From Escherichia coli (GTDB lineage: Bacteria > Pseudomonadota > Gammaproteobacteria > Enterobacterales > Enterobacteriaceae), in the NCBI RefSeq assembly GCF_003334315.1, contig NZ_QOWR01000118.1: 1,281 bases of DNA; one strand, written 5' to 3'. The notes under the pieces are model-generated. The model worked only from the letters and a program-made list of their open reading frames with translations, had not been told where the DNA came from and made no database searches. How positions within the stretch are numbered: the first letter of the stretch is position 1; each line of letters starts with the position of its first letter. This document shows, piece by piece, positions 1 through 656 of this stretch. The position numbers and the translations under genes are program-made.

Positions 1-438
1 AGGCCGCAGTCGGTAACCTCGCGCATACAGCCGGGCAGTGACGTCATCGTCTGCGCGGAAATGGACGAACAGTGGGGATACGTCGGGGCTAAATCGCGCC
101 AGCGCTGGCTGTTTTACGCGTATGACAGGCTCCGGAAGACGGTTGTTGCGCACGTATTCGGTGAACGCACTATGGCGACGCTGGGGCGTCTTATGAGCCT
201 GCTGTCACCCTTTGACGTGGTGATATGGATGACGGATGGCTGGCCGCTGTATGAATCCCGCCTGAAGGGAAAGCTGCACGTAATCAGCAAGCGATATACG
301 CAGCGAATTGAGCGGCATAACCTGAATCTGAGGCAGCACCTGGCACGGCTGGGACGGAAGTCGCTGTCGTTCTCAAAATCGGTGGAGCTGCATGACAAAG
401 TCATCGGGCATTATCTGAACATAAAACACTATCAATAA
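1..438 (+). CDS. insB: IS1 transposase InsB frame (C-terminal part of InsAB'), 5'-truncated by the window edge
   Basis: Frame 1 is open from position 1 to the TAA at 436-438 and encodes about 145 aa, of which the listed ORF 61-438 is the Met-initiated part. In IS1 this frame is normally expressed as an InsAB' fusion by -1 frameshifting upstream of this window (established knowledge). Confidence 0.93.
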
Positions 439-453
439 GTTGGAGTCATTACC
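431..453 (+). repeat. IS1 right terminal inverted repeat (IRR, about 23 bp)
   Basis: ATCAATAAGTTGGAGTCATTACC; its reverse complement GGTAATGACTCCAACTTATTGAT is the recalled IS1 end, an imperfect match to the left end GGTGATGCTGCCAACTTACTGAT. It overlaps the insB stop codon, as in canonical IS1. Confidence 0.85.
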
Positions 454-656
454 CAGTCCCTATAAATATTAGAGCAATAAAGAATACTATGCCTGTTGGA
501 AAACATATTACCATCATTCCATAAGACATGAGACTAATTAACTCGCTCACATCACGAGTGGAGTCTAATAGTGAAAGTCTATGCATGGAAAAGAATAGTA
601 TTAAAAGCGATAAAGCCAGCCATATAGCTCTGAATAAAAAAAATAATATATTTCAT
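449..656 (-). pseudogene. Putative Rhs immunity gene (small two-helix membrane protein), apparently frameshifted and 3'-truncated by the IS1 insertion
   Basis: An ATG at 656-654 overlaps the rhs stop (ATGTAATGA) with GGAG 7 nt upstream (664-667). That frame stops after 25 codons ([28 protein letters not shown] at 579-581). The adjacent frame (the rhs frame) is then open for 68 codons from 652 down to a TAA at 449-451 formed by the IS1 terminus (…GGG ACT GGG TAA). A 1-nt change in the A8/T8 run at 636-643 would join the two into MKYIIFLFRAIWLALSLLILFFSMHRLSLLDSTRDVSELISLMSYGMMVICFPTGIVFFIALIFIGTG…, which has two hydrophobic helix-like segments. A 68-codon stop-free stretch in DNA of about 28% GC is unlikely by chance (rough estimate below 1%). 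Confidence 0.4.

Follow-up and report, generated by a model that had tools for sequence, protein, structure and literature searches.

An IS1 element of the IS1B type interrupts ybfB, the small gene directly downstream of rhsC, in the 1,281-nucleotide stretch of Escherichia coli DNA analyzed here (the window). The identity of the element, the base at which it ends, the exact target position and the disrupted gene are read directly from the junction, and the event behind them is in all likelihood a transposition of IS1 into a K-12-like chromosome at the nonamer CAGTCCCTA, between ybfB codons 67 and 68. Judged by the fate of IS1 copies in relatives, this was probably a simple insertion with an intact target duplication. 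Insertion of a different IS1 at the same nucleotide in 24 complete genomes appears, from sequence differences in the element and its flank, to be a separate event. An IS1 junction in ybfB is an ordinary event of an already known kind, recurring in many E. coli strains.

The window is made up of two parts, IS1 (1-453) followed by the E. coli rhsC-ybfB locus (454-1281), with the features collected in Table 1. The host part was placed by megablast of 454-1281 against 5426 complete E. coli genomes; all 827 aligned bases are identical to K-12 MG1655, from which the window differs by one extra A, and its rhsC portion is 100% identical to K-12 rhsC. GC content is 0.55 in the IS1 part, 0.32 across 454-656, 0.42 across 659-1108 and 0.50 in the Rhs core end, in keeping with the preliminary description of the flank from 454 onward as AT-rich cassette DNA. 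In K-12, ybfB is an intact open reading frame of 327 nt (108 aa); its coding sequence and that of rhsC have base 3202 of the reference locus (L001) in common, and an orphan rhs-CT fragment and ybfC lie further downstream. A 94-aa open reading frame on the plus strand (528-812) was considered as a gene and rejected: it runs antisense to ybfB and rhsC and is without support.

Table 1. Features of the window (window coordinates) and IS1 insertion sites mapped in fetched loci (coordinates of the K-12 locus L001)
Feature	Position	Strand	Location, basis or remarks
IS1, right 453 bp (IS1 positions 316-768), IS1B-type	1..453	+	sequence comparison
insB/InsAB' transposase frame, 3' part, stop TAA at 436-438	1..438	+	NCBIfam NF033558
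IS1 right terminal inverted repeat, reverse complement of GGTAATGACTCCAACTTATTGAT	431..453	+	direct reading
Target nonamer CAGTCCCTA, expected copy of the 9-bp target duplication on the visible side	454..462		relatives
ybfB 5' part, codons 1-67 of 108, truncated by IS1	454..656	minus	K-12 annotation and translation
A8 run, +1 frameshift at ybfB codon 7	636..643		K-12 comparison
TAATG, overlap of rhsC stop (658-656) and ybfB start (656-654)	654..658	minus	direct reading
rhsC stop	658-656	minus	
RhsC variable C-terminal (putative toxin) domain, 150 aa, 9 Cys	659..1108	minus	follows DPLGL
Rhs conserved core end, including DPLGL motif (1123-1109)	1109..1281	minus	NCBIfam
IS1 site	2840		intergenic; L007, duplication CAGGTTACA; L008, same right junction, no duplication
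IS1 site	2859		intergenic; L005, no duplication
IS1 site	2887		ybfB; L006, duplication TAATGCGCT
IS1 site	2903		ybfB; L009, duplication TACAAACCA
IS1 site	2932		ybfB; L003, duplication GAAAATAA (8 bp)
IS1 site	3001		ybfB; the window's site; L002 and others, duplication CAGTCCCTA
IS1 site	3118		ybfB; L026, duplication GTGAAAGTC
IS1 site	3278		rhsC-CT; L004, duplication AAAGAATCA
IS1 site	3772		Rhs core end; L028, duplication GCGGTGGCG
IS1 site	3795		Rhs core end; L027, duplication CGGACTCCT

The visible share of the element, its right 59%, shows 0/453 differences from the same segment of full-length (768-bp) IS1 copies that are annotated as IS1B family in E. coli strains 2018-11-3CC, H9Ecoli, CUWW10 and CT29 (loci L005, L007, L027 and L028), an exact match long enough to exclude chance; IS1A-type copies differ from it at two to three positions. 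Its translation matches the NCBIfam model transpos_IS1 (E=1e-40; 139.8 bits, cutoff 100) over profile positions 82-199 of 199, as expected of the InsA/InsB (InsAB') DDE transposase, with insA and the frameshift site falling outside the window. Members of the IS1 family carry a terminal inverted repeat of about 23 bp that ends in GGTAATG or GGTGATG at the element boundary. The same terminus as in the window bounds 768-bp elements in 11 relatives; these elements extend from GGTGATG to GTCATTACC, and their right terminus aligns with window base 453, exactly where the preliminary description had placed the end of IS1. That description was equally correct in stating that only one IS1 end can be seen, the left end lying beyond the window.

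The junction falls 202 bp downstream of the rhsC stop (earlier put at about 200 bp). It thus lies inside ybfB, as first proposed for the presumed immunity coding region, and not in neutral intergenic DNA, with the immunity label being positional. YbfB, a predicted three-helix membrane protein, loses its C-terminal 41 residues to the insertion, and with them the third of the three hydrophobic segments suggested by its hydropathy profile. Read into IS1, the ybfB frame continues as ...IFIGT, acquires one Gly and meets a stop codon at 451-449 (ORF 449..586, ending in IFIGTG).

The extra A is the sole host difference in 828 bp: a homopolymer of seven A residues in K-12 has eight in the window. The preliminary description did not mention the resulting +1 frameshift in ybfB. 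Among 2666 genomes that carry this stretch, A8 is present in 44, scattered across unrelated strains, and A7 in about 98%; such a distribution could arise by repeated slippage or by sequencing errors in the homopolymer. IS1 makes ybfB a pseudogene in the source strain and, if A8 is real, the gene has been inactivated twice, the frameshift acting independently of IS1.

The toxin/immunity reading of the disrupted module draws on its position and architecture. The first 57 residues of the translated rhsC piece match RHS_core (NF041261, E=1.7e-32) and Rhs_assc_core (TIGR03696, E=3.3e-21; 75.6 bits, cutoff 32.5), and the PxxxxDPxGL-type end of the core is followed by a variable C-terminal domain, the arrangement that defines Rhs polymorphic toxins. 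A small open reading frame, ybfB, occupies the position of an rhsI gene directly downstream, overlapping rhsC at TAATG. This position fits the rule of Poole et al., and the coupled start and the low GC content that ybfB has in common with the variable tail of rhsC agree with the same reading; YbfB is thus presumed to be the immunity protein for the RhsC C-terminal toxin. Searches of Pfam, NCBIfam (beyond the core) and PDB sequences give no family match for RhsC-CT, and NCBIfam gives none for YbfB; ybfB is named as an immunity gene in none of the papers found by literature search. The sole Pfam line, OCRE (E=0.019), lies in the Rhs core repeat region and was discarded as noise. Paired with a small hydrophobic YbfB, RhsC-CT might, speculatively, act at the envelope.

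In the proposed mechanism, the usual one for IS1, the transposase would have cut the two strands of AT-rich DNA at points offset by 9 bp, and the nonamer would have been duplicated on repair. The unseen left end of IS1 is then probably followed by a second CAGTCCCTA and by ybfB codons 65-108, the nonamer repeating codons 65-67. For a simple insertion, the left junction is predicted to join TGATACAGTCCCTA, equally given as GATACAGTCCCTA, directly to GGTGATGCTGCC. The insertion would also cut the orphan rhs fragment and ybfC, both further downstream, off from transcription of rhsC. Neither this predicted left junction nor the exact 39-bp right junction was found in GTDB representative genomes or metagenome contigs, and the 45-aa junction ORF was not found in the exact-protein index.

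Relatives show what such insertions look like when both ends are seen. Mapping the IS1 ends of the fetched loci on K-12 coordinates, which detects IS1 in the window's orientation only, reveals 10 distinct sites in about 960 bp comprising the rhsC 3' end, ybfB and the spacer, five of them inside the 327-bp ybfB (Table 1). They span L001 2840-3803, equivalent to window positions ~454-1257 plus ~160 bp beyond the IS1 side of the window. An intact 8-9-bp duplication flanks some IS1 copy at 8/10 sites; none does so at 2859, and of the window's own copy at 3001 one end is visible. IS1 is known to generate duplications of 8 or 9 bp (9 bp in 78% of events) and to prefer AT-rich targets (PMC10359306), behavior with which the local duplications and the target GC content of 0.32 agree. 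At the window's own site, locus L002 contains a 768-bp IS1 with CAGTCCCTA on both sides (L002 3677-3685 and 4454-4462) and the rest of ybfB directly after it, the gene fragments adding up to 327 + 9 nt; L010-L012 and L014-L016 likewise have CAGTCCCTA at both ends of the element. Intact duplications are thus found in seven same-site carriers, as against L017 and two similar places that are devoid of them.

Two of the mapped loci are of interest in their own right. In strain 1008S19 (L004), an IS1A-type copy (4288-5055) sits in the coding region of the rhsC toxin domain, its AAAGAATCA corresponding to window ~732-740, and ybfB carries the A8 frameshift too, so that both halves of the module are disrupted. 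In strain CUWW10 (L027, 2376-4071), annotation gives the name rhsB to the rhs gene upstream of the ybfB cassette, and there is a second IS1 at a distance of about 2.6 kb, which hints at rearrangement or at exchange of modules between rhs loci via IS1 or core homology.

The main competitor of simple insertion is loss or rearrangement of the 3' part of ybfB and the downstream cassette (orphan rhs fragment, ybfC) through an IS1-promoted adjacent deletion or recombination between IS1 copies. Adjacent deletions are a recognized cause of missing duplications (PMC11708052), and three relatives are clear cases of IS1-adjacent deletion on one side, with 1.4-1.8 kb or more of cassette DNA gone from the left, that go back to simple insertions found in other strains. 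L017 (IS1 ~10208-10975) has the right junction of the window's site, but its left flank lies ~1.8 kb away inside ybfC, the 3' part of ybfB, the orphan rhs fragment and part of ybfC having been lost together with the duplication. L008 (IS1 1857-2624) has the right junction of L007 and lacks ~1.4 kb of the orphan rhs fragment on the left, again with no duplication, and L005 (IS1 1857-2624) has ISEc1 DNA on its left and no duplication. Loss of cassette DNA beyond the left end, which the preliminary description offered as a possibility for the window, is seen among same-site relatives in L017; in L002, L010-L012 and L014-L016 the duplication is intact and ybfB continues. An 8-9-bp duplication is retained by the majority of local IS1 copies and of same-site carriers, and the window's own sequence gives no sign of a deletion. 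Simple insertion is accordingly the probable state of the window and deletion an unlikely one, though a real contender; both estimates are priors taken from the outcome frequencies among the mapped relatives.

Whether the window and the same-site carriers descend from one event can be judged from the element and its flank. Megablast of the junction against the 5426 complete genomes finds IS1 at the identical nucleotide and in the same orientation in 24 of them, but this IS1 is a divergent variant that ends in GTCACTACC and is identical to the window's copy at 412/453 positions (91%). The 41 differences include positions 435 and 449, 18 and 4 bp from the terminus, at which the divergent variant has G435/C449. 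Adjoining host DNA differs as well: at window positions 1172/1202/1204 the window and K-12 have TTG, whereas the fetched divergent same-site carriers have CCT, with the exception of L013 (CTG; a scaffold with a gap in IS1). Assignment of the window to the lineage of the 24 carriers, which was considered, is thus rejected, as IS1 variant and host haplotype both differ. The combination of the window's site with an IS1B-type element occurs in none of the 5426 complete genomes, and IS1 in ybfB is seen in 0/24 contigs read among those that encode exactly the K-12 RhsC.

A shared ancestral insertion would still be conceivable if gene conversion, with an IS1B-type copy elsewhere in the genome as donor, had later replaced the sequence of its IS1: the insertions agree in site, orientation and nonamer, and potential donors abound, with a median of 13 IS1-matching places per genome. 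Conversion of this kind is nevertheless very improbable. Since all 41 variant positions are of the IS1B type, the tract would have to reach the outer limit of the homology, and any crossover or conversion would need its endpoint in the terminal 4 bp of IS1; the TTG/CCT difference in the adjoining host haplotype would be left over; and IS1B-type copies have inserted independently in or near ybfB elsewhere (L026, L007, L027 and L028). Together, the IS1 differences reaching to 4 bp from the terminus and the two host haplotypes argue for an independent transposition in the window.

An assembly artefact, in which a consensus collapsed from IS1 repeats was attached to the end of a ybfB contig and A8 is a homopolymer error, is hardly credible. 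In its favor, IS1 is a highly repeated element at which draft assemblies break; the 68-aa truncated YbfB predicted by the junction with an A7 run occurs in 151 blocks of a public protein index of which 114 have contigs <2 kb; the spread of A8 over unrelated genomes resembles that of homopolymer errors; and the exact junction has no second example in the collections searched. Against it, the IS1 terminus and a proven IS1 target nonamer meet without a base out of place, a random chimera would not end precisely at an IS terminus, and junction-crossing reads would fix 435 and 449 and thereby expose a wrong IS1 type.

With an independent transposition as the favored origin of the window's junction, the choice of the same site and orientation in two separate events is improbable unless the target is a preferred one. 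That two IS1 lineages differing by 9% used one nonamer suggests a target favored by IS1, not common descent. To explain this reuse and the local density of IS1, AT-richness suffices in combination with weak selection on an Rhs module that is not used. A stronger claim, that CAGTCCCTA at codon 67/68 is a true hot spot and the rhsC-CT/ybfB cassette a recurrent IS1 sink, inactivated beyond what AT-richness brings about, is put forward only tentatively and is more doubtful than not. If it were true, relaxed or positive selection for losing the immunity gene of an undeployed toxin would be possible; alternatively, local DNA structure or protein binding could steer IS1.

The presumed RhsC immunity gene is dispensable in many natural E. 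coli strains, in line with the idea that in such backgrounds RhsC is no weapon against sibling cells. At this locus the erosion of an AT-rich toxin/immunity cassette by IS1 can be followed on a small scale, from simple insertions to subsequent deletions of 1.4-1.8 kb on one side. In strain typing at rhs loci and in work on Rhs immunity, IS1 polymorphism at rhsC-ybfB is to be expected; beyond annotation, the importance of the junction is small.

The closest known counterparts of the window's allele are the ybfB::IS1 alleles annotated in many RefSeq genomes (among them STN0717-20, NZ_AP022482.1; 268.2; CFS3313; derivatives of EC0880B). They share its position, orientation and CAGTCCCTA, and are predicted to encode the same 68-aa truncated YbfB that the window would encode with A7; unlike the window, they have the divergent IS1, an A7 run and another rhsC haplotype. 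The element itself does not differ from IS1 (IS1A/IS1B) of E. coli K-12 and relatives, with which it has the terminal inverted repeat, the InsB frame and the AT-rich target in common, and its location alone is particular. L005, L008 and L017 resemble the documented IS-promoted adjacent deletions in their missing duplication and one-sided loss, although the documented cases concern IS150 and these copies are IS1 (PMC11708052). The module into which IS1 has inserted is built like RhsA/RhsB with RhsI of Dickeya dadantii (PMC3150448), with a core ending in DPxGL, a variable C-terminus of lower GC content and a small downstream open reading frame; in contrast to the Dickeya pairs, the toxin and immunity roles in rhsC-ybfB are putative, and RhsC-CT matches neither a Pfam family nor a solved structure.
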